NCBI GenBank assembly: GCA_020137815.1
Contig: CM035353.1
Span: 3,782,001 to 3,846,000, forward strand
DNA length: 64,000 bases
Origin: Hormiphora californensis
Lineage: Eukaryota > Animalia > Ctenophora
Reading direction: 5' to 3'
The notes under the pieces were generated by a model. The model saw only the letters and a list, made by a program, of their open reading frames with translations. It did no database searches and was not told where the DNA came from. A program made the translations under genes and the position numbers. Shown piece by piece: positions 16,854 to 53,202 of the stretch; within the stretch, counting starts at the first letter, position 1; the number at the start of each line of letters is the position of its first letter.

Positions 16854-19189
16854 AATTTATAATTCAATTTTTCATAACTTTAACTAATTTCTAGGATTAA
16901 TAACTAATAATTCGATCTAGGTCCTTTGAAAACGTGTGAGCACACTGCACCAACGATTAGTTATTTTCATTGGAAGAAGTTTGACAAATCCATTTGCTAT
17001 CTGCTATCGAGTACCCTTGCAAACCAGCAGATCAGTATAATAACATGACTACCTCTTATCCCTTTGACGGCGAGAAGGATTGGCTCGATAGAATTGTCTA
17101 ATTTTTCGTTTATAAGTAGATGTTATCAACACAAAACGCCTCGAAAAGGAAATTTGTAATTCCGACATGTAGTTTTTGCTGGGCCCACTGTAGCATATAT
17201 GATACTATCGCCCGTAAGGGAATTCTAGTAACAAATCTAAATTGTACAAGTTTGTGGGTGTTATGGCATAAATTCATGCTTTCATGAGGTTTGTAGCTAC
17301 AAGCTCTACATTCGTGAACGGTTTTTACCGGGAAAAGAACCCAAATTAGAGATTTGTATCATATATGATACTATCGTCCAAAGGGTAAATTCTCCTAAAA
17401 CATACATAATTCGGGCTAGAAAAGGAGCTAAGAGACAAATGGGGGCACTAAAATGTGTAGAATCATCGCATTAGTGGGGGTAGAGCACATATTTAGGTCG
17501 CTATCTGGACCCCTAATTGAGATAATTGCATAATTAGATAATTATCTGTCCCGCGCATGCTAATTATTAATGAAACTTTGCTCTGGGAAGGAGTTATGAG
17601 ACAAATGGGGGCACTAAAATGTGTAGAATCATTACATTAGTGGGGGTAGAGCACATATTTAGGTCGCTATCTGGATCCATAATTGAGATAATTGGATAAT
17701 TAGCTAATTAGTTGCCCTGGAGCGCTAATAAATGAGACTTTGTGGAGTATCCAAGACAAGTGAGGGCACTAAAATGTGTAAAATCATCGCCTTAGCGGGG
17801 GTAGAGCACTTAGCTGAGTTTCTATTCCCACTCCTAATTGAGATAATTGGATAATTAGCTAATTGACGGTTGCACACCGTCCACTTTTCACCAAATCCCG
17901 TGGTTTCTAGGTAATCCTGAGCTCTTTTGTTCAATCTAAGGATCTTCTGACATCCCCTAATATCCCTAAACCCCTATAACCGTGTGTCCAAACAATAAAT
18001 ATGGGAAACTGTAGTACATTAGAGGTTGAACGTGTTGTAGGAGCAATAGGATATAAAAGTTCTATAGGATTGTGGTTGGATCTTGGATGTATGAGAGGTC
18101 TAGGATGGAGCAAGAGGGTTCTAAAGAGCTGAAGGCAGTGTCTAGGGTTGTATCGAGTGCTATACTATTGTGTAAAACGAGTCATAGGTGATACAAATGG
18201 GGTTAGGGGTTGTCAGAAGATCCTTAGATTGAACAAAAGAGCTCAGGATTACCTAGAAACCACGGGATTTGGTGAAAAGTGGACGGTGTGCAACCGTCAA
18301 TTAGCTAATTATCCAATTATCTCAATTAGGAGTGGGAATAGAAACTCAGCTAAGTGCTCTACCCCCGCTAAGGCGATGATTTTACACATTTTAGTGCCCT
18401 CACTTGTCTCATAACTCCTTCCCAGAGCAAAGTTTCATGAATAATTAGTATGCGCGGGACAGATAATTAGCTAATTATCCAATTATCTCAATTAGGGATC
18501 CAGATAGCGACCTAAATATGTGCTCTACCCCCACTAATGCGATGATTCTACACATTTTAGTGCCCCCATTTGTCTCTTAGCTCCTTTTCTAGCCCGAATT
18601 ATGTATGTTTTAGGAGAATTTACCCTTAGGACGATAGTATCATATATGATACAAATCTCTAATTTGGGTTCTTTTCCTGGTAAAAACCGTTCACGATTGT
18701 AGAACTTGTAGCTACATACCACATGAAAGCATAAATTTATGCCATAGCACCCACAAACTTGTACAATTTAGATTTGTTACTAGAATTCCCTTACGGGCGA
18801 TAGTATCATATATGATACGGCGCCTTAAATGTTAACCCTTTGACGGCGACAGAGCATATATGCTACAGTTTATTCTAGGCGGCCTGGAAGTCCTTATGTT
18901 TTATCTAGGTGGCCCATATTTTGTCACAAGCTAGTTTTAGGGATTATGAACCTAAAACCACGTCCAGATCAGCTCAGAAAATCAAGAAAAAATTTTATAG
19001 CCCTTCTAAGGAGGCTAATTTCGGCCTTTTTTTAAAAACATTTCTCATTTTTTTGTTTTTTGGGGGCACAACTAATCCTTTGAAGGAATAAAAGTGCTCG
19101 TCATAACCGACCGAATGCAAAAAGCCGCATCAAAAAATATTGAAAATTGAATGAGTTATTAACATTTAAGGCGCCGTATCATATATGAT

Positions 19190-20042
19190 CAGTAAACATA
19201 CACACACATTGAGCAGGCTCAATTTAGCTAATCACTGGCGGGGTATGGGGCTGAGGCACTGGCAAGATATAGTGGGATCGCTACTTCCCACATCTCATGT
19301 GTATTCTGAATTGCAAATTTAAAAGGGTTGGGTGGTCTCTGGGACCGTCTAGACTTCGCTCCCTGTTAACATGCCAGAAACCAGGGGTCCATCTAGCTCT
19401 CATACGCATTCGGCCATTACTTTCCCAACCAGTAGTACTGGATTTCACATCCTCTTATACTCGCAATTCAGGATAGAAACAATCCTTGTGTTCTAATAGC
19501 GATCACCTCGTATATCTTGCACTGACCCGTACTACCACACATTTAGTGTGCTTGAAATGGCACTACGGGAATATCTCCACTACACGGCCAGCACTGTGGG
19601 TAGACAGCCACCATTCAAGTTCCATCACGGTTGCTAACCGGACAATACATTAGTAGAGGGGGTTGGAACACCAGGAGGAAGATCAGTAAACATACACACA
19701 CATTGAGCAGGCTCAATTTAGCTAATCACTGGCGGGGTATGGGGCTGAGGCACTGGCAAGATATAGTGGGATCGCTACTTCCCACATCTCATGTGTATTC
19801 TGAATTGCAAATTTAAAAGGGTTGGGTGGTCTCTGGGACCGTCTAGACTTCGCTCCCTGTTAACATGCCAGAAACCAGGGGTCCATCTAGCTCTCATACG
19901 CATTCGGCCATTACTTTCCCAACCAGTAGTACTGGATTTCACATCCTCTTATACTCGCAATTCAGGATAGAAACAATCCTTGTGTTCTAATAGCGATCAC
20001 CTCGTATATCTTGCACTGACCCGTACTACCACACATTTAGTG
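19190..20042 (-). repeat. Inverted segment (~1.7 units) of the 494-bp array
   Basis: Reverse complement of the main unit; the same 61-aa ORF appears on the + strand here; junction shares TG at 20041-20042. Confidence 0.95.
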
Positions 20043-23000
20043 GTGTTCCAACCCCCTCTACTAATGTATTGTCCGGTTAGCAACCGTGATGGAACTTGAA
20101 TGGTGGCTGTCTACCCACAGTGCTGGCCGTGTAGTGGAGATATTCCCGTAGTGCCATTTCAAGCACACTAAATGTGTGGTAGTACGGGTCAGTGCAAGAT
20201 ATACGAGGTGATCGCTATTAGAACACAAGGATTGTTTCTATCCTGAATTGCGAGTATAAGAGGATGTGAAATCCAGTACTACTGGTTGGGAAAGTAATGG
20301 CCGAATGCGTATGAGAGCTAGATGGACCCCTGGTTTCTGGCATGTTAACAGGGAGCGAAGTCTAGACGGTCCCAGAGACCACCCAACCCTTTTAAATTTG
20401 CAATTCAGAATACACATGAGATGTGGGAAGTAGCGATCCCACTATATCTTGCCAGTGCCTCAGCCCCATACCCCGCCAGTGATTAGCTAAATTGAGCCTG
20501 CTCAATGTGTGTGTATGTTTACTGATCTTCCTCCTGGTGTTCCAACCCCCTCTACTAATGTATTGTCCGGTTAGCAACCGTGATGGAACTTGAATGGTGG
20601 CTGTCTACCCACAGTGCTGGCCGTGTAGTGGAGATATTCCCGTAGTGCCATTTCAAGCACACTAAATGTGTGGTAGTACGGGTCAGTGCAAGATATACGA
20701 GGTGATCGCTATTAGAACACAAGGATTGTTTCTATCCTGAATTGCGAGTATAAGAGGATGTGAAATCCAGTACTACTGGTTGGGAAAGTAATGGCCGAAT
20801 GCGTATGAGAGCTAGATGGACCCCTGGTTTCTGGCATGTTAACAGGGAGCGAAGTCTAGACGGTCCCAGAGACCACCCAACCCTTTTAAATTTGCAATTC
20901 AGAATACACATGAGATGTGGGAAGTAGCGATCCCACTATATCTTGCCAGTGCCTCAGCCCCATACCCCGCCAGTGATTAGCTAAATTGAGCCTGCTCAAT
21001 GTGTGTGTATGTTTACTGATCTTCCTCCTGGTGTTCCAACCCCCTCTACTAATGTATTGTCCGGTTAGCAACCGTGATGGAACTTGAATGGTGGCTGTCT
21101 ACCCACAGTGCTGGCCGTGTAGTGGAGATATTCCCGTAGTGCCATTTCAAGCACACTAAATGTGTGGTAGTACGGGTCAGTGCAAGATATACGAGGTGAT
21201 CGCTATTAGAACACAAGGATTGTTTCTATCCTGAATTGCGAGTATAAGAGGATGTGAAATCCAGTACTACTGGTTGGGAAAGTAATGGCCGAATGCGTAT
21301 GAGAGCTAGATGGACCCCTGGTTTCTGGCATGTTAACAGGGAGCGAAGTCTAGACGGTCCCAGAGACCACCCAACCCTTTTAAATTTGCAATTCAGAATA
21401 CACATGAGATGTGGGAAGTAGCGATCCCACTATATCTTGCCAGTGCCTCAGCCCCATACCCCGCCAGTGATTAGCTAAATTGAGCCTGCTCAATGTGTGT
21501 GTATGTTTACTGATCTTCCTCCTGGTGTTCCAACCCCCTCTACTAATGTATTGTCCGGTTAGCAACCGTGATGGAACTTGAATGGTGGCTGTCTACCCAC
21601 AGTGCTGGCCGTGTAGTGGAGATATTCCCGTAGTGCCATTTCAAGCACACTAAATGTGTGGTAGTACGGGTCAGTGCAAGATATACGAGGTGATCGCTAT
21701 TAGAACACAAGGATTGTTTCTATCCTGAATTGCGAGTATAAGAGGATGTGAAATCCAGTACTACTGGTTGGGAAAGTAATGGCCGAATGCGTATGAGAGC
21801 TAGATGGACCCCTGGTTTCTGGCATGTTAACAGGGAGCGAAGTCTAGACGGTCCCAGAGACCACCCAACCCTTTTAAATTTGCAATTCAGAATACACATG
21901 AGATGTGGGAAGTAGCGATCCCACTATATCTTGCCAGTGCCTCAGCCCCATACCCCGCCAGTGATTAGCTAAATTGAGCCTGCTCAATGTGTGTGTATGT
22001 TTACTGATCTTCCTCCTGGTGTTCCAACCCCCTCTACTAATGTATTGTCCGGTTAGCAACCGTGATGGAACTTGAATGGTGGCTGTCTACCCACAGTGCT
22101 GGCCGTGTAGTGGAGATATTCCCGTAGTGCCATTTCAAGCACACTAAATGTGTGGTAGTACGGGTCAGTGCAAGATATACGAGGTGATCGCTATTAGAAC
22201 ACAAGGATTGTTTCTATCCTGAATTGCGAGTATAAGAGGATGTGAAATCCAGTACTACTGGTTGGGAAAGTAATGGCCGAATGCGTATGAGAGCTAGATG
22301 GACCCCTGGTTTCTGGCATGTTAACAGGGAGCGAAGTCTAGACGGTCCCAGAGACCACCCAACCCTTTTAAATTTGCAATTCAGAATACACATGAGATGT
22401 GGGAAGTAGCGATCCCACTATATCTTGCCAGTGCCTCAGCCCCATACCCCGCCAGTGATTAGCTAAATTGAGCCTGCTCAATGTGTGTGTATGTTTACTG
22501 ATCTTCCTCCTGGTGTTCCAACCCCCTCTACTAATGTATTGTCCGGTTAGCAACCGTGATGGAACTTGAATGGTGGCTGTCTACCCACAGTGCTGGCCGT
22601 GTAGTGGAGATATTCCCGTAGTGCCATTTCAAGCACACTAAATGTGTGGTAGTACGGGTCAGTGCAAGATATACGAGGTGATCGCTATTAGAACACAAGG
22701 ATTGTTTCTATCCTGAATTGCGAGTATAAGAGGATGTGAAATCCAGTACTACTGGTTGGGAAAGTAATGGCCGAATGCGTATGAGAGCTAGATGGACCCC
22801 TGGTTTCTGGCATGTTAACAGGGAGCGAAGTCTAGACGGTCCCAGAGACCACCCAACCCTTTTAAATTTGCAATTCAGAATACACATGAGATGTGGGAAG
22901 TAGCGATCCCACTATATCTTGCCAGTGCCTCAGCCCCATACCCCGCCAGTGATTAGCTAAATTGAGCCTGCTCAATGTGTGTGTATGTTTACTGATCTTC

Positions 23001-23708
23001 CTCCTGGTGTTCCAACCCCCTCTACTAATGTATTGTCCGGTTAGCAACCGTGATGGAACTTGAATGGTGGCTGTCTACCCACAGTGCTGGCCGTGTAGTG
23101 GAGATATTCCCGTAGTGCCATTTCAAGCACACTAAATGTGTGGTAGTACGGGTCAGTGCAAGATATACGAGGTGATCGCTATTAGAACACAAGGATTGTT
23201 TCTATCCTGAATTGCGAGTATAAGAGGATGTGAAATCCAGTACTACTGGTTGGGAAAGTAATGGCCGAATGCGTATGAGAGCTAGATGGACCCCTGGTTT
23301 CTGGCATGTTAACAGGGAGCGAAGTCTAGACGGTCCCAGAGACCACCCAACCCTTTTAAATTTGCAATTCAGAATACACATGAGATGTGGGAAGTAGCGA
23401 TCCCACTATATCTTGCCAGTGCCTCAGCCCCATACCCCGCCAGTGATTAGCTAAATTGAGCCTGCTCAATGTGTGTGTATGTTTACTGATCTTCCTCCTG
23501 GTGTTCCAACCCCCTCTACTAATGTATTGTCCGGTTAGCAACCGTGATGGAACTTGAATGGTGGCTGTCTACCCACAGTGCTGGCCGTGTAGTGGAGATA
23601 TTCCCGTAGTGCCATTTCAAGCACACTAAATGTGTGGTAGTACGGGTCAGTGCAAGATATACGAGGTGATCGCTATTAGAACACAAGGATTGTTTCTATC
23701 CTGAATTG
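20041..23708 (+). repeat. 494-bp tandem array, ~7.4 apparently identical units
   Basis: ORF track recurs every 494 bp (20392, 20886...23356) with identical translation. Confidence 0.98.
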
Positions 23709-26174
23709 GTTAAGAGGATGAAATCCGTACTCACTGCTTGGGAATATGCACTGAAAGCTTGCGTATGGAAGATGGACCCATGGTGCTTCTGCCAGTTAAC
23801 AGGGGTGAATTCAGCGTCCCAGACCCCCAACCCTTTGATTTGCAATTCAGAATGACACTGAATGTGGGAAGTACGATAACACCTTATCTTGCCAGTAGCT
23901 ACCCATACCCCGCATGCTGATAGCTAAATTGAGCCTGCTATAGTGTGATGTTTCTGATTCCTACCGGTGTTCAACCCCACTACTAATGTATGTCCGGTAG
24001 CAACCGGATGGAACTTGATGGGGGTTGTCTACCCAGGCCAAAAACTTGGCTTAATAAGTTCATCGTCGAGTAGCCCATTAAATGATTGTGTCCGATCATT
24101 TTTTTCCATCAGTGTATTTGGGTTGGGCACTTTTGTTTACGGTGCAAAAATTTCCTAAATGTTGCACAATTGGTAAGACTTCTTGTTCTGATACGCATTA
24201 GTGGAATACTTTGATTAAGTGACGATTACGGTTACTCCCGATGGTTTAAGAGATGTAAGGGCAACGTCCAGTGGAGCCCACCCTTTTATTAAAGATGATT
24301 GGAGTCATTTCTTTCCCCCCATAAGGTGGTCCTTGGTTTATGTGGTGACCACTCCTGTTGGTAACCTGTTTCATTTAGAGTCAAGTTGGAGACACTACTT
24401 TAAAATTCTAAGCTAAGCCACTTGGTGATTAATAGTCTAATTGGGTTTTAAAACCCTTTTTAAACGACTATGGACCTTTTTTGGTAATAGCAAAGCTATG
24501 GACCCTTGCATTTTCCCGGTATCCTTAAATCTCATGTTCTCTGTGGTTAGAAGTTATCCTTAATGTCTTTCCATCCGGGTTAATGTAATGTTTCTATTGG
24601 GTCCAAAACCCTGGTGTTGGTCTCCGGTGCTATAAGCACCCATCCGGGGAAACAGATTTAATAGTTTATATCTCGGAAGTACCCCATTAATGCTAAGTTT
24701 AACCCGTGAAACTTTGAAATGCCAATCTGAGTTAGCTTTTCCCTTATGCGTTAAATTTTCAATGCCTCAATAAGTGGGTCGTTTTGGGGGCTCTGTTCTA
24801 CCCATAATTTATACCATTTGGTTATAATTTGGGTTTAACACGATTTTAGCCTGATGGGTAGGGTGATGAAGGTGGGACGAACGAATTTAACTGTTGGAAT
24901 AAGGGGAAGTCGTAGTCAGGTCCATACAATTTATACAGGATAGACATAGAATTGACTCTGGCAACCCTGTGGATTAGCCGCCACGATTAGTTACCCGTGT
25001 GGTAATTCTCTGCATTGACTTAAATGTGTATCGGGTCAACTGAGTGAGTGTCGCTTTGAAAGTTGTGCCTATCTGTGCGATAAAGTGATCCGATGTTGGG
25101 ATTAATGGGATTAAGAAAGTGTGCCGATCGGCATAGATGCGAGTCTGGTTCAAGCACCTACCTTGGAGTTGGACAGTCATGATTGGGATAACCCAACATG
25201 GTTGCGCCTTTCCAATATGCATGAGGAATGACCGTCAATTATTCTATATCCATAGATCCAATAGCTTCATGTGTCCGTTATCTCGTGATGGCTTGAGGTG
25301 CCGCATCTTTGGCAGTGGGCGTATCGTGTGCCTTTAGCCCTTAGTTGAACCTGTCAATGGTATACGGTGAGTTAGATTAAGGATGTCTATCTATTTGGGT
25401 ATGAGAGGATGTGAAATTAGTCCTACTGGTGGGTATGCTAATCGATGTTTTGGATATGGACCGGTTTTGGGTGAACGGGAGCGAAGTTGGAGGTAAGCCA
25501 CCACCGTTTAAATTGCACTTGATACGTGAGTGTGGGAACGTTCTCCGTATACTGCGTTCTCGCCCATCCCCCCTGTTAGAATGAGCCTACTCATGAGTTG
25601 GTATGTAGTATTTCCTCTGGGTTCTACCCTTGAAAAGCTATTGCGTTGACCTATGAACTTGTGGGCTGTCTTCCCAGTGCTGCCGTGCTAGTAGATTTCC
25701 CGTAGCCATTTCAGCACATAATGGTGTACTAGGGTTGAAATCGATATGGTAGTCCTTCAATCCATAATGTAGATGTGATCGTATAGGTGAAATCAGTGAT
25801 GTTTAATATTGCCGAGGTTACCAATTGGTGGATGGTATTGGATGAACTATGGAAGCCGATCTAAGATAACGACCCTTTAAATTGATCAATACGAGATGTG
25901 GGAATAGCGATCCCACATTTTGGCGTGGTCAGCCCCTCACTGGTTAGCTAAATTAGCTCTAATTGTTTGATGTTACTGTCTGTCGGTTAATGGTCTCATG
26001 TGGTTGATGATCTCCTCATTGCCCCTTCAAGTTGTTGGTGGGTTAGTGAGTATTCCCGGCCGTTACGATAAGTTGTAGTCGTTGGCAAGAATGGGTGGAT
26101 GTAGTGCCAAGATTGTTTTGGCTTGCATAAAGGATGGTTTATAATCAGTCACTGTTGAGTAAGGGAATAATCGA
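23709..26174 (+). repeat. Heavily degenerate core of the array (~5 unit lengths), possibly unpolished long-read sequence
   Basis: Indel-riddled unit remnants at ~23709-24030, ~25390-25730 and ~25870-25980; phase shift across it is 6x494 minus 69 bp. Confidence 0.75.
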
Positions 26175-29100
26175 AGCTAGATGGACCCCTGGTTTCTGGC
26201 ATGTTAACAGGGAGCGAAGTCTAGACGGTCCCAGAGACCACCCAACCCTTTTAAATTTGCAATTCAGAATACACATGAGATGTGGGAAGTAGCGATCCCA
26301 CTATATCTTGCCAGTGCCTCAGCCCCATACCCCGCCAGTGATTAGCTAAATTGAGCCTGCTCAATGTGTGTGTATGTTTACTGATCTTCCTCCTGGTGTT
26401 CCAACCCCCTCTACTAATGTATTGTCCGGTTAGCAACCGTGATGGAACTTGAATGGTGGCTGTCTACCCACAGTGCTGGCCGTGTAGTGGAGATATTCCC
26501 GTAGTGCCATTTCAAGCACACTAAATGTGTGGTAGTACGGGTCAGTGCAAGATATACGAGGTGATCGCTATTAGAACACAAGGATTGTTTCTATCCTGAA
26601 TTGCGAGTATAAGAGGATGTGAAATCCAGTACTACTGGTTGGGAAAGTAATGGCCGAATGCGTATGAGAGCTAGATGGACCCCTGGTTTCTGGCATGTTA
26701 ACAGGGAGCGAAGTCTAGACGGTCCCAGAGACCACCCAACCCTTTTAAATTTGCAATTCAGAATACACATGAGATGTGGGAAGTAGCGATCCCACTATAT
26801 CTTGCCAGTGCCTCAGCCCCATACCCCGCCAGTGATTAGCTAAATTGAGCCTGCTCAATGTGTGTGTATGTTTACTGATCTTCCTCCTGGTGTTCCAACC
26901 CCCTCTACTAATGTATTGTCCGGTTAGCAACCGTGATGGAACTTGAATGGTGGCTGTCTACCCACAGTGCTGGCCGTGTAGTGGAGATATTCCCGTAGTG
27001 CCATTTCAAGCACACTAAATGTGTGGTAGTACGGGTCAGTGCAAGATATACGAGGTGATCGCTATTAGAACACAAGGATTGTTTCTATCCTGAATTGCGA
27101 GTATAAGAGGATGTGAAATCCAGTACTACTGGTTGGGAAAGTAATGGCCGAATGCGTATGAGAGCTAGATGGACCCCTGGTTTCTGGCATGTTAACAGGG
27201 AGCGAAGTCTAGACGGTCCCAGAGACCACCCAACCCTTTTAAATTTGCAATTCAGAATACACATGAGATGTGGGAAGTAGCGATCCCACTATATCTTGCC
27301 AGTGCCTCAGCCCCATACCCCGCCAGTGATTAGCTAAATTGAGCCTGCTCAATGTGTGTGTATGTTTACTGATCTTCCTCCTGGTGTTCCAACCCCCTCT
27401 ACTAATGTATTGTCCGGTTAGCAACCGTGATGGAACTTGAATGGTGGCTGTCTACCCACAGTGCTGGCCGTGTAGTGGAGATATTCCCGTAGTGCCATTT
27501 CAAGCACACTAAATGTGTGGTAGTACGGGTCAGTGCAAGATATACGAGGTGATCGCTATTAGAACACAAGGATTGTTTCTATCCTGAATTGCGAGTATAA
27601 GAGGATGTGAAATCCAGTACTACTGGTTGGGAAAGTAATGGCCGAATGCGTATGAGAGCTAGATGGACCCCTGGTTTCTGGCATGTTAACAGGGAGCGAA
27701 GTCTAGACGGTCCCAGAGACCACCCAACCCTTTTAAATTTGCAATTCAGAATACACATGAGATGTGGGAAGTAGCGATCCCACTATATCTTGCCAGTGCC
27801 TCAGCCCCATACCCCGCCAGTGATTAGCTAAATTGAGCCTGCTCAATGTGTGTGTATGTTTACTGATCTTCCTCCTGGTGTTCCAACCCCCTCTACTAAT
27901 GTATTGTCCGGTTAGCAACCGTGATGGAACTTGAATGGTGGCTGTCTACCCACAGTGCTGGCCGTGTAGTGGAGATATTCCCGTAGTGCCATTTCAAGCA
28001 CACTAAATGTGTGGTAGTACGGGTCAGTGCAAGATATACGAGGTGATCGCTATTAGAACACAAGGATTGTTTCTATCCTGAATTGCGAGTATAAGAGGAT
28101 GTGAAATCCAGTACTACTGGTTGGGAAAGTAATGGCCGAATGCGTATGAGAGCTAGATGGACCCCTGGTTTCTGGCATGTTAACAGGGAGCGAAGTCTAG
28201 ACGGTCCCAGAGACCACCCAACCCTTTTAAATTTGCAATTCAGAATACACATGAGATGTGGGAAGTAGCGATCCCACTATATCTTGCCAGTGCCTCAGCC
28301 CCATACCCCGCCAGTGATTAGCTAAATTGAGCCTGCTCAATGTGTGTGTATGTTTACTGATCTTCCTCCTGGTGTTCCAACCCCCTCTACTAATGTATTG
28401 TCCGGTTAGCAACCGTGATGGAACTTGAATGGTGGCTGTCTACCCACAGTGCTGGCCGTGTAGTGGAGATATTCCCGTAGTGCCATTTCAAGCACACTAA
28501 ATGTGTGGTAGTACGGGTCAGTGCAAGATATACGAGGTGATCGCTATTAGAACACAAGGATTGTTTCTATCCTGAATTGCGAGTATAAGAGGATGTGAAA
28601 TCCAGTACTACTGGTTGGGAAAGTAATGGCCGAATGCGTATGAGAGCTAGATGGACCCCTGGTTTCTGGCATGTTAACAGGGAGCGAAGTCTAGACGGTC
28701 CCAGAGACCACCCAACCCTTTTAAATTTGCAATTCAGAATACACATGAGATGTGGGAAGTAGCGATCCCACTATATCTTGCCAGTGCCTCAGCCCCATAC
28801 CCCGCCAGTGATTAGCTAAATTGAGCCTGCTCAATGTGTGTGTATGTTTACTGATCTTCCTCCTGGTGTTCCAACCCCCTCTACTAATGTATTGTCCGGT
28901 TAGCAACCGTGATGGAACTTGAATGGTGGCTGTCTACCCACAGTGCTGGCCGTGTAGTGGAGATATTCCCGTAGTGCCATTTCAAGCACACTAAATGTGT
29001 GGTAGTACGGGTCAGTGCAAGATATACGAGGTGATCGCTATTAGAACACAAGGATTGTTTCTATCCTGAATTGCGAGTATAAGAGGATGTGAAATCCAGT

Positions 29101-29875
29101 ACTACTGGTTGGGAAAGTAATGGCCGAATGCGTATGAGAGCTAGATGGACCCCTGGTTTCTGGCATGTTAACAGGGAGCGAAGTCTAGACGGTCCCAGAG
29201 ACCACCCAACCCTTTTAAATTTGCAATTCAGAATACACATGAGATGTGGGAAGTAGCGATCCCACTATATCTTGCCAGTGCCTCAGCCCCATACCCCGCC
29301 AGTGATTAGCTAAATTGAGCCTGCTCAATGTGTGTGTATGTTTACTGATCTTCCTCCTGGTGTTCCAACCCCCTCTACTAATGTATTGTCCGGTTAGCAA
29401 CCGTGATGGAACTTGAATGGTGGCTGTCTACCCACAGTGCTGGCCGTGTAGTGGAGATATTCCCGTAGTGCCATTTCAAGCACACTAAATGTGTGGTAGT
29501 ACGGGTCAGTGCAAGATATACGAGGTGATCGCTATTAGAACACAAGGATTGTTTCTATCCTGAATTGCGAGTATAAGAGGATGTGAAATCCAGTACTACT
29601 GGTTGGGAAAGTAATGGCCGAATGCGTATGAGAGCTAGATGGACCCCTGGTTTCTGGCATGTTAACAGGGAGCGAAGTCTAGACGGTCCCAGAGACCACC
29701 CAACCCTTTTAAATTTGCAATTCAGAATACACATGAGATGTGGGAAGTAGCGATCCCACTATATCTTGCCAGTGCCTCAGCCCCATACCCCGCCAGTGAT
29801 TAGCTAAATTGAGCCTGCTCAATGTGTGTGTATGTTTACTGATCTTCCTCCTGGTGTTCCAACCCCCTCTACTAA
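26175..29875 (+). repeat. 494-bp tandem array, ~7.5 apparently identical units
   Basis: ORF track recurs every 494 bp (26251...29215); ends at ...ctactaa before the duplicated TATCATATATGAT. Confidence 0.98.
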
Positions 29876-32727
29876 TATCATATATGATACTATCGCCCGT
29901 AAGGGAATTCTAGTAACAAATCTAAATTGTACAAGTTTGTGGGTGCTATGGCATAAATTTATGCTTTCATGTGGTATTTAGCTACAAGTTCTACAATCGT
30001 GAACGGTTTTTACCAGGAAAAGAACCCAAATTAGAGATTTGTATCATATATGATACTATCGTCCTAAGGGTAAATTCTCCTAAAACATACATAATTCGGG
30101 CTAGAAAAGGAGCTAAGAGACAAATCAGGGCACTAAAATGTGTAGAATTATCGCATTAGTGGGGGTAGAGCACATATTTAGGTCGCTATCTGGACCCCTA
30201 ATTGAGATAATTGGATAATTAGCTAATTATCTGTCCCGCGCATACTAATTATTCATGAAACTTTGCTCTGGGAAGGAGTTATGAGACAAATGGGGGCACT
30301 AAAATGTGTAGAATCATCAAATTAGTGGGGGTAGAGCACATATTTAGGTCGCTATCTGGATCCATAATTGAGATAATTGGATAATTAGCTAATTAGTTGC
30401 TCTGGAGCGCTAATAAATGAGACTAGGCGGAGTATACAAGACAAGTGAGGGCACTAAAATGTGTAAAATCATCGCCTTAGCGGGGGTAGAGCACATAGCT
30501 GAGTTTCTATTCCCACTTCTAATTGAGATAATTGGATAATTAGCTAATTGACGGTTGCACACCGTCCACTTTTCACCAAATCCCGTGGTTTCTAGGTAAT
30601 CCTGAGCTCTTTTGCTCAATCTAAGGATCTTCTGACAACCCCTAACCCCATTTGTATCACCTATGACTCGTTTTACACAATAGTATAGCACTCGATACAA
30701 CCCTAGACACTGCCTTCAGCTCTTTAGAACCCTCTTGCTCCATCCTAGACCTCTCATACATCCAAGATCCAACTACAATCCTATAGAATTTTTATATCCT
30801 ATTGCTCCTACAACACGTTCAACCTCTAATGTACTACAGTTTCCCATATTTATTGTTTGGACACACGGTTATAGGGGTTTAGGGATATTAGGGGATGTCA
30901 GAAGATCCTTAGATTGAACAAAAGAGCTCAGGATTACCTAGAAACCACGGGATTTGGTGAAAAGTGGACGGTGTGCAACCGTCAATTAGCTAATTATCCA
31001 ATTATCTCATTTAGGAGTTGGAATAGAAACTCAGCTATGTGCTCTACCTCCACTAAGGCGATGATTTTACACATTTTAGTGCCCCTACTTGTCTTGGATA
31101 CTCCACAAAGTCTCATTTATTAGCGCTCCAGGGCAACTAATTAGCTAATTATCCAATTATCTCAATTATGGATCCAGATAGCGACCTAAATATGTGCTCT
31201 ACCCCCACTAATTTGATGATTCTACACATTTTAGTGCCCCCATTTGTCTCATAACTCCTTCCCAGAGCAAAGTTTCATGAATAATTAGTATGCGCGGGAC
31301 AGATAATTAGCTAATTATCCAATTATCTCAATTAGGGGTCCAGATAGCGACCTAAATATGTGCTCTACCCCCACTAATGCGATGATTCTACACATTTTAG
31401 TGCCCTGATTTGTCTCTTAGCTCCTTTTCTAGCCCGAATTATGTATGTTTTAGGAGAATTTACCCTTAGGACGATAGTATCATATATGATACAAATCTCT
31501 AATTTGGGTTCTTTTCCTGGTAAAAACCGTTCACGAATGTAGAGCTTGTAGCTACAAACCTCATGAAAGCATGAATTTATGCCATAACACCCACAAACTT
31601 GTACAATTTAGATTTGTTACTAGAATTCCCTTACGGGCGATAGTATCATATATGCTACAGTGGGCCCAGCAAAAACTACATGTCGGAATTACAAATTTCC
31701 TTTTCGAGGCGTTTTGTGTTGATAACATCTACTTATAAACGAAAAATTAGACAATTCTATCGAGCCAATCCTTCTCGCCGTCAAAGGGTTAATAACTCAT
31801 TCAATTTTCAATATTTTTTGATGCGGCTTTTTGCATTCGGTCGGTTATAACGAGCACTTTTATTCCTTCAAAGGATTAGTTGTGCCCCTAAAAAACAAAA
31901 AAATGAGAAATGTTTTTTAAAAAAGGCCGAAATTAGCCTCCTTAGAAGGGCTATAAAATTTTTTTCTTGATTTTCTGAGCTGATCTGGACGTGGTTTTAG
32001 GTTCATAATCCCTAAAACTAGCTTGTGACAAAATATGGGCCACCTAGATAAAACATAAGGACTTCCAGGCCGCCTAGAATAAACTGTAGCATATATGCTC
32101 TGTCGCCGTCAAAGGGTTATCCAGTAAGTTGCAATTGCTATCAACTGAGGATGTTATCTGAGATGCCCATGCCCACTGACATAGTTAGTTAGCTTCTGTT
32201 GCTACTTGGAACTGATGATTCTTAGAACACTACAAAAGCTGATAATAAAGAAAGGACTAATTTGATAAGGAGTGGTTCGTCAAACAACAAGTCCAAAAAG
32301 TTTATACTTAAAATGAGCAAGATTTTTATGGCCAGATCTTGGCAGGTAAGAAATAATTGCTATGAATTGAGGCTGTTATATGTTATCTGAGATGTCCAAT
32401 AACATGTGGAAATGTTGATACTGAGTTAACTGAATATAATTAATAAAGAAGCAGTGATATAATTACACTAGTGCTAGACACGAACTAGGCTTTCCCTATC
32501 CGGGAAGAGCGGAGATCAAGGGAGAAGTGGACCCCAAGCGGTTCAAGGATCAAACCAACCTGGTGACCCCGACCCCGGCAGAGCGGATGGAGCTGATTCC
32601 TGTCGAACCCTGAACTTGCGAACCCCGGTAAGAAAGCAGAGGAGTTTCAGGAGGAGGGACGGAATTCGAGGGAAAAGGGATAAGATATCAAACAATTGGG
32701 TAATCCTTATACGACCTATTTTTATAG

Positions 32728-33264: not shown

Positions 33265-34026
33265 CTGGAGTTGAGAAACCGGCTGAACTGATTGCCAAGG
33301 GCATTATCAGACACCTGGGGGGGGTCCAGCCCTAAAAAAGCTAAGCTAACGGCCAAAATCAGGGTACCTTTAGCTTTTTTTAGCTTTTTTTAGCTTTTTT
33401 TAGCTTTTTTTAGCCTTTTTTAGCTTTTTTTAGCTTTATTTAGCTTTTTTTAGCTTTTTTTTAGCTTTTTTAAGGCTAAAAAAAGCTAAAAAAAGCTAAA
33501 AAAAGCTAAAAAAAGCTAAAATTGAGTTTTTAGTGGATTCATATAGGTTCGAATCCCGCTGACGCCAAATTTTTTAAACTTTTATTATAACGTTTTATAA
33601 CGTTTTTTGAACTTTTTTAAAACTATTTTTATCAAATTTGAATAATATTTTTATCGAAAAAATGTCTCCAGAAAATGGCAGTAGGGGTGGATACAGAAAT
33701 TGCTATGTATGGACATAAACGGTAGATTATGGTAAAAAATGTGCAGGAAATGAACAAATGCAGTCAATAGACGTCCGGAAGGATGAAAATTTAATGGAAA
33801 AGTGTCAAGATGAATGCTGAAAAAACATAAAAAGTAGGGCTAAAAAAAGCTAAAAAAAGCTAAAAAAAGCTAAAAAAAGCTAAAATAAAAAACGCTATCG
33901 ACCAAAATCAGGGTACCTTTAGCTTTTTTTAGGGCTGGACCCCCCCCACACCTTGAAAGACTTGGGATCAGCACTGACTGGGTTAAAGTTGTTGGCTGTG
34001 ACTGGTGCTCTACTAACACCGGAAGA
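33265..34026 (+). pseudogene. hAT-like transposase fragment split by a MITE
   Basis: Removing 33317-33947 plus one TSD copy gives in-frame GVEKPAELIAKGIIRHLERLGISTDWVKVVGCDWCSTNTGR, resembling the catalytic-Asp motif GCDGTxxNTG; 3' part repeated at ~40644-40722. Confidence 0.55.
33317..33947. mobile_element. 631-bp MITE with poly-G/poly-C termini and 6-bp TSD
   Basis: ACACCT|GGGGGGGGTCCAGCCCTAAAAAA...TTTTTTAGGGCTGGACCCCCCCC|ACACCT; internal (TAGCTTTTTT)n and (AAAAAAGCTA)n. Confidence 0.9.
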
Positions 34027-34668
34027 GTCATGAATCATCCAATCAGATATCATTATACGCATACTTAGATGTTATTTATATCATAAATATAAAGTAAAAA
34101 CGATCAAAAGATCAAAAGTATATGGTAATTAACAGTTTTAATGATATACAATATAGGCTGCAGGCGAAGGAGAAGACGAGTCCTACCAAATGCTATGAGC
34201 CAGGTATGGCACGATACTACGTGGAATGTTTGCTGGCAGGCTGTGTTATATGCTGTCTGAAAACTGTCACCTCTAACGTATAGTACCTAATCATGTAAAA
34301 ATTTACGGCATCATGTTCAAAATGATAATATGTATATAAAACGTTTTAGTTAATCTAACTTGGACATTTGCACAGTAGTGTAATATTTTTATAGCTTATA
34401 CATTTATTAAGTTAGAAATATAAAGTTTACTTGTGTATATATAGTATAACAAATTGGTTGGCTAAAATATCGTAGCAGATATAGTTCCGTGACTCTTTAT
34501 GATGGAACCCCAGATCTATATCATATCATAACCGGAAAAACGAAATCCAGGATTACATCAAGTACTGAGGCCTCATTACAGGCGAAGAATTTGACTAATA
34601 TTTAATACTGACTAAGGAAGTGTATAAGGGACGGCTCTGCCACAAGATACATGGAGGCGAAATCAAGC

Positions 34669-35435
34669 TTGTTCCAGAACCAACCTTGGTAGAGGGAAAG
34701 GATGTCACCTGCTACATCGATACTCCATTCAGTTCGACGTTTTTATGCCATAGCCAAGAGGTGGAACTATGTGTGCAAACTAGTGCCAGTAAGGCTAAAA
34801 ACTTCAAGTCACACGAATCGAGCATAGGTAGCGCTATTATTACTACTGAGAGTAGAAGGCAGAGAAGAGGAAAGACAACTTGTTCCAGAACCAACCTTGG
34901 TAGAGGGAAAGGATGTAACCTGCTACATCGATACTCCATTCAGTTCGACGTTTTTATGCCATAGCCAAGAGGTGGAACTATGTGTGCAAACTAGTGCCAG
35001 TAAGGCTAAAAACTTCAAGTCACACGAATCGAGCATAGGTAGCGCTATTATTACTACTGAGAGTAGAAGGCAGAGAAGAGGAAAGACAACTTGTTCCAGA
35101 ACCAACCTTGGTAGAGGGAAAGGATGTAACCTGCTACATCGATACTCCATTCAGTTCGACGTTTTTATGCCATAGCCAAGAGGTGGAACTATGTGTGCAA
35201 ACTAGTGCCAGTAAGGCTAAAAACTTCAAGTCACACGAATCGAGCATAGGTAGCGCTATTATTACTACTGAGAGTAGAAGGCAGAGAAGAGGAAAGACAA
35301 CTTGTTCCAGAACCAACCTTGGCAGAGGGAAAGGATGTGACCTGCTACATCGATACTCCATTCAGTTCGACGTTTTTATGCCATAGCCAAGAGGTGGAAT
35401 TATGCGTGCAAACTAGTGCAAGCAAGGCCAAAAAC
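34669..35435 (+). repeat. 211-bp tandem repeat, ~3.6 units
   Basis: cttgttccagaaccaaccttggtagagggaaagg recurs at 211-bp spacing (ORFs at 34712, 34923, 35134). Confidence 0.95.
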
Positions 35436-35710
35436 TAGTTAATTAAAATCGAAGGTCTAATGCCAACCAGGAACCTAAAGGACGTCATTCATCCAAGTAC
35501 TCACCATACTGAGGAGCAGCGAGGAGCAGCCCAATAACATGTGGAAGTGTTGATACGGAGTTTACTGAATATAATTAATAAAGAAGCAGTGATACAATTA
35601 CACTTGCTAGACACGAACTAGTTTTAAACAGAAGTCCGGGAATCTCTTTACCATGTATTGGATACTGCGGATAACAGAGGTTTGAACAGCCTTCGTGACA
35701 GATTAGATAC

Positions 35711-36864
35711 ATGAACTATGAACGTTTGTAGACTGGCGCGTTATCAAGTTGGCTGTTCCCAGCGCGAGCTGGGGACAGCCAACTGGAGTTTAATCGCCCG
35801 GCAGGGCGATTAAACTGGTTTAAATCCCGACGCCGATCCCGAGGCGCCAGCCGAGGGTGAGGGGGAGGTGATTTAAACCTATAACGCGATAGGCTAACAA
35901 ACGTTCATAGTTTATGAAACCCGATAGTAATTACACACAAATAAGAGACACATCACAAGGGGTAACACACAAGGACTACTGGCAAATAGTCAACAGACAC
36001 TCTCAAAATGTGTGTAGACTTAGTGTCTACTGTTCCTAACATGTTTGAGAAAGAGAGAGAAAGATTAGGGGCAAAACACACAGTGAGAGATATTGAACAG
36101 TAAAAGAGAGAATGAGAGAGAGAAACGAATGGAATGCGACTATTTTGCCTCTTGATGAGAGAGATAACATATATATATGAAACCCGATAGTTGATTTATC
36201 AGTCGTTTGAACATTTTACGCGCACACGTTAACTGCGAGCTGGGGGATTTAACACCCTGCTCGCTATTTATCAGACCAGTGCCCATTTTCACGCGTTTCT
36301 CTTCATTTCCATAACATGCGTGTAAATTTCCAAGTAATGAAAATGTGTGTAAACACACAGTTCTGTCAATAACAGAGAGGGGAACACATCTGCAACACTT
36401 TTCAATGTTATCTCTCTCATCAAGAGGCAAAATAGTCGCATTCCATTCGTTTCTCTCTCTCATTCTCTCTTTTACTGTTCAATATCTCTCACTGTGTGTT
36501 TTGCCCCTAATCTTTCTCTCTCTTTCTCAAACATGTTAGGAACAGTAGACACTAAGTCTACACACATTTTGAGAGTGTCTGTTGACTATTTGCCAGTAGT
36601 CCTTGTGTGTTACCCCTTGTGATGTGTCTCTTATTTGTGTGTAATTACTATCGGGTTTCATAAACTATGAACGTTTGTTAGCCTATCGCGTTATAGGTTT
36701 AAATCACCTCCCCCTCACCCTCGGCTGGCGCCTCGGGATCGGCGTCGGGATTTAAACCAGTTTAATCGCCCTGCCGGGCGATTAAACTCCAGTTGGCTGT
36801 CCCCAGCTCGCGCTGGGAACAGCCAACTTGATAACGCGCCAGTCTACAAACGTTCATAGTTCAT
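35711..36864. mobile_element. Composite foldback insertion with ~458-bp inverted arms, each ending in a ~200-bp hairpin-rich mini-element
   Basis: ATGAACTATGAACGTTTG...CAAACGTTCATAGTTCAT; absent from duplicate copy 2 (~42190-42215); no clear TSD. Confidence 0.85.
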
Positions 36865-40151: not shown

Positions 40152-41368
40152 TATGTTTCTTTCCCACTCTCTCGGTTCACATACTACAGTAAATAGGTCA
40201 CGTTCTCCTTCTTCTTACTCCCTTTAGCCCAAATCACACAGCTACTCTAGAGTATGAATTGTGACAGAGAGTAAGCGGCAGTGCATCATGATGTTCTATG
40301 ACACTTTAGCTGCTTAGCCAACTACCAACCAAGTAATCACTTTTAATTGTTTTCAAAATGTCTCCAGAAAATGGCAGTAGGGGTGGATACAGAAATTGCT
40401 ATGTATGGACATAAACGGTAGATTATGGTAAAAAATGTGCAGGAAATGAACAAATGCAGTCAATAGACGTCCGGAAGGATGAAAATTTAATGGAAAAGTG
40501 TCAAGATGAATGCTGAAAAAACATAAAAAGTAGGGCTAAAAAAAGCTAAAAAAAGCTAAAAAAAGCTAAAAAAAGCTAAAATAAAAAACGCTATCGACCA
40601 AAATCAGGGTACCTTTAGCTTTTTTTAGGGCTGGACCCCCCCCACACCTTGAAAGACTTGGGATCAGCACTGACTGGGTTAAAGTTGTTGGCTGTGACTG
40701 GTGCTCTACTAACACCGGAAGAGTCATGAATCATCCAATCAGATATCATTATACGCATACTTAGATGTTATTTATATCATAAATATAAAGTAAAAAACGA
40801 TCAAAAGATCAAAAGTATATGGTAATTAACAGTTTTAATGATATACAATATAATAGGCTGCAGGCGAAGGAGAAGACGAGTCCTACCAAATGCTATGAGC
40901 CAGGTATGGCACGATACTACGTGGAATGTTTGCTGGCAGGCTGTGTTATATGCTGTCTGAAAACTGTCACCTCTAACGTATAGTACCTAACCATGTAAAA
41001 ATTTACGGCATCATGTACAAAATCATTATATGTATATAAAACGTTTTAGTTAATCTAACTTGGACATTTGCACAGTAGTGTAATATTTTTATAGCTTATA
41101 CATTTATTAAGTTAGAAATATAAAGTTTACTTGTGTATATATAGTATAACAAATTGGTTGGCTAAAATATCGTAGCAGCAGATAGTTCCGTGACTCTTTA
41201 TGATGGAACCCCAGATCTATATCATATCATAACCGGAAAAACGAAATCCAGGATTACATCAAGTACTGAGGCCTCATTACAGGCGAAGAATTTGACTAAT
41301 ATTTAATACTGACTAAGGAAGTGTATAAGGGACGGCTTCGCCACAAGATACATGGAGGCGAAATCAAG

Positions 41369-50722: not shown

Positions 50723-53202
50723 CCCTTTGAGGGCGATAGGTCATATATGACACGGTCCATTCTAGACCGTCTGGAAGGCGTTACATGATGTCTAGGTGGC
50801 TAATTTTTTGTCACAAGCTAGTTTTAGGGATTTTGAACCCAAAACCACGTCCAAATCTGCTCGGAAAATCGAAGAAATTTTTTTATGGCCCTTCTCGGGA
50901 GGCTAATTTAGGCCTTTTTTTAAAAACCCCTCTCAAATTTTTGTCTTTGAGGGGCACAAATAATCCTTTGAAGGGATAAAACTACTTGACATAACAAACT
51001 GAATGCAAAAAACCGCATCAAAAAATATTGAAAATTGAATGAGTTATTAACGTTTTAGTCGTTGTATCATATATGACTCTATCGTCCGTAAGGGAATTCT
51101 AGTAACAAATGTCATTTGTGCAAAAGTATGGGTCCAATAGTCAAATTTTATGCTTTGAGGCAGTCTATAGCTATAATTTCTACAATCTTGAACGGTTTTT
51201 ACTAGAAAAATACCCCAAATTCTACATTTTGTATCATATATGACTCTATCGTCCCAATTGGTAAATTCTCCAAAAACATCCATAACTCGGGCTAGAAAAG
51301 GAGCTAAGAGTCAAACCAGGGCACTAAACTGTGTAGAATCATCGCATTAGTGGGGGTAGAGCACATATTTAGGTCGCTATCTTGCCCCCTAATTGAGATA
51401 ATTGGATAATTAGCCAATTATCTGTCCCGCGCATGCTAATAAATGAAACTTTGCTTTGGGAAGGAGTTATGAGGCAAATGGGGGCACTAAAATGTGTAGA
51501 ATCATCACATTAGTGGGGTTAGAGCACATATTTAGGTCTCTATCTGGACCCCTAATTGAGATAATTGGATAATTAGCTAATTAGTTGCCCTCCAGCGCTA
51601 AAAAATTAAATTTGGCGGAGTATACAAGACAAATGGGGGTACTAAAATGTGTAAAATCGTCGCCTTAGTGGGGGCAGAGCACATAGCTGAGTTTCTATTC
51701 CCGCTCCTAATTGAGATAATTGGATAATTAGCTAATTGACGGTTGCATAATGCCCCCTTTTCACCATATACCGTGGTTTCTGGCTAATCCTGAGCTCTTT
51801 TGTTCAATCTAAGGATCTTTTAGCATCCCTTTACCCAATTTGTATCACCTTTGACTCGTTTTACACACTAATATAGCACTCTATACAACCCTAGACACCG
51901 CCTTCAGCTCTTTAGAACCCTCTTGCTTAATCCTAGACCTCTCATAATTTCGAAATCCATACACCTTCCTGACCGATTTTTGGGATATCCTATTGCTCCT
52001 ACAAGACGTTCAACCCCTAATGTACTACAGTTTCCCATTTTTTATTATTGGAAACACAGTTTAGATTCCCCCTACGTTATTTCTCCTCATCACTCTCACA
52101 ATCTCATTTGCCACTAAGGAAACTTCTCATGAACTCCATCGGAAATAAAGATGATCTGTAGAAGGCGTTTAGTATGGTGTATGAGAGGACTAGCTAGGAG
52201 TAGGATTAAGCAAGAGGGTTCTAAAGAGCTGAAGGCGGTGTCTAGGGTTGTATAGAGTGCTATATTAGTGTGTAAAACGAGTCAAAGGTGATACAAATTG
52301 GGTAAAGGGATGCTAAAAGATCCTTAGATTGAACAAAAGAGCTCAGGATTAGCCAGAAACCACGGTATATGGTGAAAAGGGGGTATTATGCAACCGTCAA
52401 TTAGCTAATTATCCAATTATCTCAATTAGGAGCGGGAATAGAAACTCAGCTATGTGCTCTGCCCCCACTAAGGCGACGATTTTACACATTTTAGTACCCC
52501 CATTTGTCTTGTATACTCCGCCAAATTTAATTTTTTAGCGCTGGAGGGCAACTAATTAGCTAATTATCCAATTATCTCAATTAGGGGTCCAGATAGAGAC
52601 CTAAATATGTGCTCTAACCCCACTAATGTGATGATTCTACACATTTTAGTGCCCCCATTTGCCTCATAACTCCTTCCCAAAGCAAAGTTTCATTTATTAG
52701 CATGCGTGGGACAGATAATTGGCTAATTATCCAATTATCTCAATTAGGGGGCAAGATAGCGACCTAAATATGTGCTCTACCCCCACTAATGCGATGATTC
52801 TACACAGTTTAGTGCCCTGATTTGACTCTTAGCTCCTTTTCTAGCCCGAGTTATGGATGTTTTTGGAGAATTTACCAATTGGGACGATAGAGTCATATAT
52901 GATACAAAATGTAGAATTTGGGGTATTTTTCTAGTAAAAACCGTTCAAGATTGTAGAAATTATAGCTATAGACTGCCTCAAAGCATAAAATTTGACTATT
53001 GGACCCATACTTTTGCACAAATGACATTTGTTACTAGAATTCCCTTACGGACGATAGAGTCATATATGACACAGTGGGCCCAGCAAAAACTACATGTCGA
53101 AACTTCAAATTTCTTTTTCGAGGTAGTTTGTGGTAATAATATCTACTTATAAACGAAAAATTAGAAAAATCTATCGAGCCAATCCTTCTCGTCCTTAAAG
53201 GG
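50723..53202 (+). mobile_element. Uninterrupted 2.48-kb piggyBac-like non-autonomous element (diverged subfamily)
   Basis: ATAA|CCCTTTGAGGGCGA...TCGTCCTTAAAGGG|TTAA; end A ~330 bp, ~880-bp inverted arms, spacer, end B ~130 bp; homologous throughout to 17060-32116. Confidence 0.92.

Follow-up and report, generated by a model that had tools for sequence, protein, structure and literature searches.

Within a 64,000-nucleotide stretch of the ctenophore Hormiphora californensis (assembly GCA_020137815.1, contig CM035353.1, positions 3,782,001 to 3,846,000; hereafter the window), about 20 head-to-tail units of 494 bp each, accompanied by an inverted arm and a duplication of the landing site, split a non-coding foldback DNA element. 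The locus raises the question of how a unit that encodes nothing came to be inserted as an array, and on what kind of template.

Architecture of the array

The two arms meet head to head (Table 1). Inversion of the left ~850 bp had been claimed in the earlier note, with microhomologies GAT at the left flank and TG at the inversion point, and these observations were reproduced: the inverted arm is exactly 856 bp long and 100% identical to the unit, and both microhomologies are present, together with a single T at the right flank. All three junctions lie within error-free sequence. The outer ends are both template-3′ ends of the + strand arms, that of the inverted arm being the tail-less one. 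In unit phase the main arm starts 7 nt beyond the outer end of the inverted arm and 11 nt beyond the Naiad-like boundary described below; the inverted and direct parts are consequently contiguous on the template but for a 7-nt phase gap (chance 21/494).

Table 1. Features of the insertion and its host; positions are those of the window, and phase 1 of the unit is position 20041.
Feature	Position	Strand	Remarks
Outer sister of host element	17060..32116	-	Reversed; TTAT on both sides; empty site at 18803-18818
Host foldback DNA element, non-coding	18836..31788	+	CCCTTT ends, TTAA duplication; split by the insertion
Left target site duplication	19177..19189	+	13 bp; with the first T assigned to the unit at the right end, 12 bp and perfectly palindromic
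Inverted 5′-truncated arm	19187..20042	-	856 bp = 1.73 units; phases 126 to 487
Main arm, first perfect block	20041..23708	+	7.4 identical 494-bp units (3668 bp); start phase 495 (=1)
Long branched rod, per unit	20188..20462	+	Predicted; z -5.1 on +, -3.7 on -; segment picked after viewing the fold
Weak hammerhead-like match, per unit	20331..20466	-	C-S-G order, invariant A9 missing, stem I weak
Naiad_Mley-like 3′ terminus, per unit	20481..20525 (first copy)	+	By eye, against PMC8557442 File S5
Naiad_Bfor-like 5′ start, per unit	20524..20572	+	By eye, against supplement snippets; 14/20 ungapped from the first base, then CCGGTT in common
Degraded middle	23709..26174	+	Both edges alignable to the unit, errors mostly deletions; ~24037-24900 unrecognisable
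Main arm, second perfect block	26175..29876	+	7.5 units (3702 bp); end phase 519 (=25)
Putative PLE-type tail	29845..29876	+	32-nt extension, right end only; phases 488-519
Right target site duplication	29876..29888	+	13 bp
Third, older host copy	50723..53202	+	Empty site near 51065-51077

Counting the inverted arm, there are at least 16.6 perfect units in total, and 8.2 kb of good sequence is free of any change. On the main arm, perfect sequence is limited to the two blocks (14 full copies plus partials). The claim that the whole 10.7 kb is array is confirmed for these blocks but not for the degraded 23709-26174 between them. The edges of this middle align to the unit with 41 deletions, 10 insertions and 23 mismatches in 369 columns and then with 296, 17 and 88, respectively, in 1121 columns, whereas a true paralogue pair used as yardstick shows 4 deletions, 5 insertions and 86 mismatches in 775 columns. 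Between 24100 and 24900 no unit signal was detected (81.5 against the unit, 79 ± 8 against shuffled units; k-mer z 1.0-1.7), and the best fit to the degraded middle, made without a control, is about 6 units. This segment is likely an unpolished read or gap fill. With 2.5 kb of read-like noise separating two perfect blocks of almost the same length, the array was not resolved by the assembly, and because ~0.9-1.3 kb of the middle is not recognisable or verified as unit, the continuity of the array, its copy number and the length of a single event are unproven. Polishing of assemblies can render repeat copies identical, and the identity of the copies can be explained by polishing or by recent expansion.

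Target site and host element

The insertion is flanked on both sides by the 13-bp sequence TATCATATATGAT (19177-19189 and 29876-29888), an AT-rich palindrome. That these are target site duplications (TSDs), as previously proposed, is confirmed by two sister copies of the host that hold the empty site. In the outer sister the left flank passes through one copy of the 13-mer into the right flank at 18803-18818 (reversed), in agreement with the earlier observation, and the third host copy likewise has a single 13-mer (12/13 letters), with flanks matching at 66/73 and 60/73. None of 1000 random pairs of 40-bp stretches shared a word of at least 12 letters. The 13-mer occurs seven times in the window, the five further places being an internal repeat of the host family, and because of this recurrence the TSD call is carried by the empty-site comparison and not by the word alone. 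The empty site is predicted to be foldable as a hairpin (-6.7 kcal/mol). The host foldback element is presumably piggyBac-like.

Outer ends and resemblance to Penelope-like elements

Measured along the 494-nt unit, the distance between the outer ends at this single locus is 31, 32, 34 or 35 nt, depending on how the microhomologies are counted; a random offset would fall within 30-40 nt with a probability of 22/494. The last 17 nt of the resulting extension are 76% A+C (rank 22 of 494 windows of the unit), and at the right junction no poly(A) or simple-repeat 3′ end precedes the TSD. Insertions of Penelope-like elements (PLEs) are described as partial tandems that adjoin an inverted 5′-truncated copy and carry a tail of 30-40 bp at one of their ends (PMC8557442), and for Adineta PLEs a tail of 31 bp and TSDs of 8-10 bp are given (PMC3846280). 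The present locus combines direct tandems with an adjoining head-to-head inverted 5′-truncated copy, a tail at one end and an AT-rich TSD. A purified PLE enzyme nicks AT-rich DNA on both strands and extends each of them, initiating at two internal positions of the RNA that have no homology to the target; the tail is the sequence between these positions (PMC11167929).

Naiad PLEs are present in two ctenophores, are without canonical hammerheads and often target (TA)n (PMC8557442). In an ungapped comparison by eye, unit phases 441-459 (15/19) and 477-485 (9/9) matched one of the four Naiad 3′ ends compared, assigned to Naiad_Mley by file order in File S5, and phases 484-503 (14/20) matched one of five 5′ starts. 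A second start has two short words in common with the unit, and no such similarity was seen in the remaining three 3′ ends and three 5′ starts. Rough binomial probabilities, corrected for offsets and for the five ends, are 4e-5 to 2e-3 for the 3′ match and 3e-3 to 3e-2 for the 5′ match, both being short similarities to supplement snippets from other species that were noticed after the PLE idea had arisen. By both matches, the Naiad boundary falls at the outer end of the tail-less arm. The statement in the earlier note that both ends fall mid-unit is therefore probably wrong: it depends on the chosen unit start, and the ends adjoin the Naiad-like boundary. If the outer-end offset is a PLE tail at such a boundary, fixed ends and not a variable start phase are expected at other loci.

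Coding capacity and RNA structure of the unit

The unit (GC 47%) is without an open reading frame, the longest stop-free frame being 70 aa, and none of its eight frames matched Pfam. No remnant of a PLE protein was found in the 46 frames scanned, which gave one weak unrelated match. A GIY-YIG remnant considered in a 57-aa frame was rejected, as its two matches are tandem-repeat pseudo-proteins and its atlas match (0.75) lies below threshold. Words of 20-24 nt from the unit had no match in viral, metagenome and prokaryote genome collections, nor did blastn return any from plasmids and phages; a 35-bp match at 39110-39144 is short and AT-rich. Elsewhere in the window, the protein at 46474-47148 is matched by 3 of 157 candidates, all from Pleurobrachia bachei, at 63-71% identity.

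The + strand of the unit has a predicted fold with a z of -2.54 (0/100 shuffles equally stable), or -1.9 when folded as a circle. In the predicted circular fold, G-U pairs number 17/156 on the + strand and 10/149 on the - strand. This agrees with the excess counted earlier, but the + strand is richer in G and T and the excess is thus weak evidence; a count of G-U versus A-C in shared helices had only two informative positions. Predicted accessibility of the priming sites on the circle gave no support either (left rank 19-44 of 494, right rank 171 or worse). On the + strand no CUGANGA within one change and no canonical, minimal or any-order hammerhead was found, and because it lacks the hammerhead core the unit is by definition not a retrozyme. 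The - strand, which is not the template, gave one hammerhead-like match with a relaxed descriptor, loosened after the sequence was seen, and none with the strict one; a match as good arose in 2.1% of 1000 shuffles (in 0.6% when the number of Watson-Crick pairs also had to be reached), and this one is probably due to chance. Rfam returned nothing at gathering score, only noise at E 7.2, a strict home-made HDV-like descriptor had no match on either strand, and no tRNA was found in the unit. Further candidates were set aside: Twister and group I intron words, checked by eye, were unconvincing; the one pair of Pol III A and B boxes is weak, being equalled by 4.75% of 2000 shuffles; and an intron circle was considered because GT follows a branch-point-like word precisely at the right end, but such a site is expected by chance at 0.87 per unit, the position being accounted for by the tail.

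Mode of insertion and form of the template

The array is likely a young insertion with the end pattern of PLEs, and its unit a protein-free Naiad passenger. In combination, these observations make it fairly probable that a TSD-flanked tandem-plus-inverted array of a non-autonomous Naiad derivative owes its integration, as a single event, to a borrowed PLE reverse transcriptase-endonuclease. The enzyme would nick the AT-rich palindrome on its two strands with a stagger of 12-13 nt, and each 3′ end would then prime copying of the + strand RNA at either of the two fixed start sites of PLEs, namely the element boundary (phase 484-487) and the boundary plus tail (phase 518-519). One cDNA would halt after 856 nt and the other would run through many units, the two then being joined head to head via the 2-nt TG overlap.

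The earlier note had read the locus as LINE-style twin-primed, target-primed reverse transcription; for L1, twin-primed 5′ inversions were reportedly described by Ostertag and Kazazian in 2001. Target priming is retained here, and so is the predicted template, the + strand of the main array, on which both target ends would have been primed. Arbitrary priming sites are not retained, given the lack of poly(A) and the 31-35-nt offset. The same offset, as a PLE tail, and the Naiad-like termini support the Penelope-like reverse transcriptase that had also been named as a candidate.

The template was likely longer than one unit. A linear multimer produced by read-through of an existing array is slightly favoured over a single circle: the end of the long arm is 11 nt away from the unit boundary and fails by 7 nt to reach the phase of the other primer, and no circularising ribozyme is evident. 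A tentative reading, which we hold to be rather unlikely, is that Naiad termini gave rise to a structured circular RNA of 494 nt whose closure involved no hammerhead, and that a Naiad enzyme reverse-transcribed this RNA for ~20 laps, the product being integrated whole; the spliceosome, a ligase or a ribozyme of unknown type might then have closed the circle.

Alternative origins

The same PLE-type insertion could have held few units at first, the long arm having grown by unequal exchange or owing its length to the assembly. The noisy 2.5 kb between perfect blocks of 3668 and 3702 bp would fit such a history, and polishing can equalise copies. However, unchanged TSD copies and 8.2 kb of good sequence leave little time for later growth, which we judge unlikely, if worth keeping in mind. 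Retrozyme arrays point both ways: in 10.64898/2026.07.22.740005, unequal crossover is the model named for their local amplification and 75% of families have at most 7 units, but families with up to 180-300 units are known. LINE-type twin priming at arbitrary sites on a multimeric or circular RNA appears improbable. A TSD below 20 bp and a microhomology-joined 5′ inversion are L1 hallmarks (PMC10760644), the start of the main arm only 7 nt from the priming phase of the inverted arm (21/494 by chance) is as twin priming predicts, and symmetric T^A nicks are possible; the right end is nevertheless devoid of poly(A) or a simple repeat, and neither the 31-35-nt offset nor the Naiad-like words seen at the two ends would be accounted for.

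Both ends are primed on one strand, which calls for a single-stranded template and not for RNA as such, and the empty site can form a hairpin. Repair of a staggered break, with copying from a rolling-circle DNA product or from a circle of single-stranded DNA, would accommodate this, but hardly the clean TSD without deletion or the tail offset, and the unit is unmatched in plasmids and phages and, by 20-24-nt words, in the viral, metagenome and prokaryote collections; we give this origin very little credence. A foldback read or false repeat join that created the inversion or the entire structure is just as improbable. The noisy middle would suit such a chimera, and any inversion in periodic sequence resembles a short-spacer foldback; conversely, 3/3 junctions are error-free, the flanks join exactly as in the two empty sister copies, and the TSD and the tail-sized offset would both have to arise by chance.

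Relation to known elements

Non-autonomous PLEs with multicopy head-to-tail insertions are described for Chlamydomonas (PMC8557442). Like the unit, these Chlamys elements, e.g. MRC1, have by implication no coding capacity; their termini resemble autonomous families, as those of the unit may do, and the clade is mostly without canonical hammerheads; they belong to a green alga, whereas the present insertion is in a ctenophore, with putative Naiad-like ends, at least 16.6 perfect units and an inverted arm. With Naiad and other EN+ PLE insertions the locus has in common direct tandems, the inverted 5′-truncated copy, a 30-40-nt tail, an AT-rich target, a TSD and minimal primer homology (PMC8557442, PMC3846280, PMC11167929). 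Those elements are 3.4-4.4 kb long and partially tandem, in contrast to many full copies of a 494-bp unit without open reading frame. The TSD of 12-13 bp exceeds the 8-10 bp of Adineta PLEs, which also have a junction palindrome in place of the 2-nt overlap observed here at the inversion point (PMC3846280).

Metazoan non-LTR retrozymes are similarly non-coding tandem units of a few hundred bases with GC below 50%, a self-paired fold and TSDs above 4 bp, and for them PLE mobilisation and more-than-unit cDNA from circles have been proposed, as considered for the unit here (PMC7229834, PMC7761336 and 10.64898/2026.07.22.740005). Retrozymes are defined by a type I hammerhead, which the unit lacks, and a circular RNA form of the unit is hypothetical. 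As in the L1 5′ inversions (PMC10760644), both target ends would be primed on one RNA strand, with a microhomology join and a near-contiguous register; L1 has poly(A), whereas this insertion has none and its priming sites appear to be fixed by the element and not arbitrary.

Implications

Circles as PLE templates were proposed in 2014 (PMC4209133), two fixed PLE start sites were demonstrated only in 2024, in vitro (PMC11167929), and the origin of the tandem and inverted structures of PLEs is still an open question. In the literature searched, which consisted mostly of non-subscription papers, neither tandem non-autonomous derivatives of Naiad nor ctenophore elements of this kind were found described. 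Being very short, young and devoid of a hammerhead, and having a tail, a long arm and a clean empty site for comparison, such a passenger offers a compact system for distinguishing a circle from a linear multimer, and the unit is also suited to mapping the minimal RNA signal required by Naiad. If the circle reading is true, the unit would represent a ribozyme-free counterpart of retrozymes in ctenophores, and the locus would provide direct evidence, at the level of the genome, that a PLE can carry out target-primed reverse transcription of the rolling-circle type.

Insertion site and array structure

The 13-mer TATCATATATGAT stands at both edges of the array (19177-19189 and 29876-29888), which splits a foldback DNA element. 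Both sisters of this host element carry left-flank sequence, a single copy of the site and then right-flank sequence; consequently, the target duplication (TSD) is real and the two flanks of the array belong together. The earlier note had claimed a 13-bp duplication with a single-copy site in the outer sister, and this is confirmed, the third host copy being likewise single-copy. As a chance control, 40-bp stretches were paired at random 1000 times, and no pair shared a 12-letter word. The foldback family has internal subrepeats of 163-166 bp, and one copy has landed within another, in a TTAA that lies 20 bp from the homologue of the site that later received the array.

The repeat unit is 494 bp long, and its phases are counted from position 20041 (phase 1), phase 495 being phase 1 of the following copy. 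The three junctions show microhomologies of GAT, TG and a single T, and the proposed inversion of the left ~850 bp, with GAT at the left flank and TG at the inversion point, was recovered as the inverted arm. Including this arm, the perfect sequence amounts to 16.6 units. The two perfect blocks are separated by 2466 bp of degraded sequence, the edges of which align to the unit with deletions dominating (41/369 and 296/1121 columns); a true paralogue pair, by contrast, had 4 in its 775 columns. The core of the degraded stretch scores no differently from shuffled units. A six-unit reference fitted this middle best, in a fit made without a control. The degraded middle appears to resemble an unpolished read or gap fill, and for this reason array copy number, continuity and even copy identity are weaker evidence than they seem. 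Thus, of the claim that the whole 10.7 kb is one array, the two perfect blocks and the junctions stand; the junctions are real, whereas the middle is unverified.

Coordinates of the array, its host elements and other features of the window
Feature	Position	Strand	Remarks
Inverted arm	19187-20042		phases 126 to 487; zero differences from unit
Perfect array blocks	20041-23708 and 26175-29876 only		14 full copies plus partials
Host foldback DNA element	18836-31788		TTAA flanking either side; nested inside reversed sister
Outer sister of host element, reversed	17060-32116
Third copy of host element	50723-53202
Gene with ShK-like domains	44423-47151	+	21-bp repeat, 41 copies; in-frame seven-residue repeat
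Element with 460-bp inverted arms	35711-36864		arms perfectly identical; missing from paralogous segment near 42194-42208
Element with 518-bp inverted arms	3601-4890		arms 99.4% identical; adjoins TA run
Mirror-arranged subrepeats	10538-12692		15, 39, 11 and 52 bp
Inverted arms of 11-bp repeats	48012-49694		flank 458-bp CTCTCC run
Recent local duplication	33659-37233 v 40355-42573		includes 211-bp tandem units
Recent local duplication	56929-58071 v 58895-60036

The element with 460-bp arms has symmetric ends and no tail, and is therefore likely a DNA-type miniature element, while the mirror-arranged subrepeats suggest another foldback element. Both pairs of local duplications are 95-99.8% identical. 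For the ShK-domain protein, all three relatives come from Pleurobrachia bachei (63-71% identity), and in these the matching repeat stretch is short or absent. This makes a ctenophore the probable source of the window.

The unit as RNA

No frame of the unit exceeds 70 aa, 0/8 frames matched Pfam, and the unit belongs to no Rfam family. Relative to shuffles, the + strand folds with z -2.54 and the - strand with z -1.81; + strand stability derives mostly from a 275-nt rod, for which z is -5.1 (range in six control windows, +0.3 to -2.6), and folding as a closed circle gave z of only -1.9. The + strand contains no CUGANGA within one change and no hammerhead in canonical, minimal or scrambled order, the last searched with permutation types described in PMC10085705. 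One match to a relaxed hammerhead pattern on the - strand is missing A9, is equalled by 2.1% of shuffles and is probably due to chance. An intron circle, of the kind treated in PMC11146597, was considered on account of a branch-point-like word and GT at the right end, but chance alone would give each unit one site of this sort.

Array ends and similarity to Naiads

With + taken as the RNA strand, the two arms are arranged head to head, and synthesis would start at the outer end of each. The left end is phase 487 (484 without GAT) and the right end phase 519 (518 without T), 31-35 nt apart on the unit; the chance of a random offset within 30-40 nt is 22/494. In PMC8557442, insertions of Penelope-like elements (PLEs) are described as partial tandems next to which a 5'-truncated copy lies in inverted orientation, with a tail of 30-40 bp at one end; those of Adineta have a 31-bp tail and TSDs of 8-10 bp (PMC3846280). 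According to PMC11167929, the purified PLE of an anole acts on AT-rich DNA, where it cuts both strands and extends them, and synthesis begins at two internal RNA sites, target homology not being needed, the tail being the stretch between them.

Naiads, a PLE family described without canonical hammerheads in PMC8557442, are recorded in Beroe and Mnemiopsis in its supplement. Excerpts of its consensus file (File S5; five 5' starts, four 3' ends) were compared with the unit by eye, after the fact. At its 5' start, Naiad_Bfor agrees with phases 484-503 in 14 of its first 20 nt, ungapped, and CCGGTT comes next in the unit, in Naiad_Bfor and also in Naiad_Aacu. One 3' end, printed just ahead of Naiad-1_Chem and assigned to Naiad_Mley by file order, matches phases 441-459 at 15/19 and, six bases from its end, phases 477-485 at 9/9. 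The remaining ends in these excerpts gave no comparable match by eye. A rough binomial, allowing for offsets and five ends, gives 3e-3 to 3e-2 for the 5' match and 4e-5 to 2e-3 for the 3' match. By both matches, the boundary of the element falls at phase 484-487, the point at which the tail-less arm stops. Consequently, the array ends, previously read as mid-unit, are probably the boundary and the boundary plus tail, as judged from this sequence similarity.

In File S5, several published Naiad 3' ends show, by eye, GAAA ahead of CUGAUGA, a scrambled hammerhead order. The unit has, again by eye, GGCCGAA at phases 259-265, about the same distance from the boundary, but no CUGANGA, as if the hammerhead-like motif had decayed.

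Proposed mechanism and template

Most likely, a Naiad-type protein would nick both strands of the palindrome GTATCATATATGATAC; with the right-hand T assigned to the unit, the TSD would be 12 bp and the two nicks symmetric. Each nicked end would be extended on + strand RNA, from one start site apiece, and the two cDNAs joined at TG. The long arm starts at phase 495, which lies 11 nt beyond the boundary and 7 nt beyond the phase primed on the left (chance about 21/494). On a single linear multimer the first enzyme would run until it met the second primer or the 5' end of the RNA, and such a template suits this start better than one circle, which is cDNA-covered after a lap. A circular template, although already proposed for PLEs and retrozymes (PMC4209133, PMC7229834, PMC7761336) and workable with two circles plus a coincidence, is unlikely. 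Expansion of the array after insertion is a live rival (10.64898/2026.07.22.740005, the sampling described there including no ctenophore); we lean towards a single long insertion event.

Non-LTR retrozymes work in a similar way but are defined by a hammerhead, which the unit lacks. The twin-priming signature claimed earlier holds for the register expected of L1 twin priming as given in PMC10760644, but not for the poly(A) end, which is absent. The literature searches yielded no description of non-autonomous Naiads arranged in tandem, nor of any such ctenophore element. The array fits the class of MRC1 and its kin, non-autonomous PLEs reported with multicopy head-to-tail insertions (PMC8557442), as a candidate pending a helper and a family. 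Involvement of a PLE is quite probable, and the insertion is most likely a PLE-mobilised mini-Naiad, a proposed non-coding Naiad derivative.
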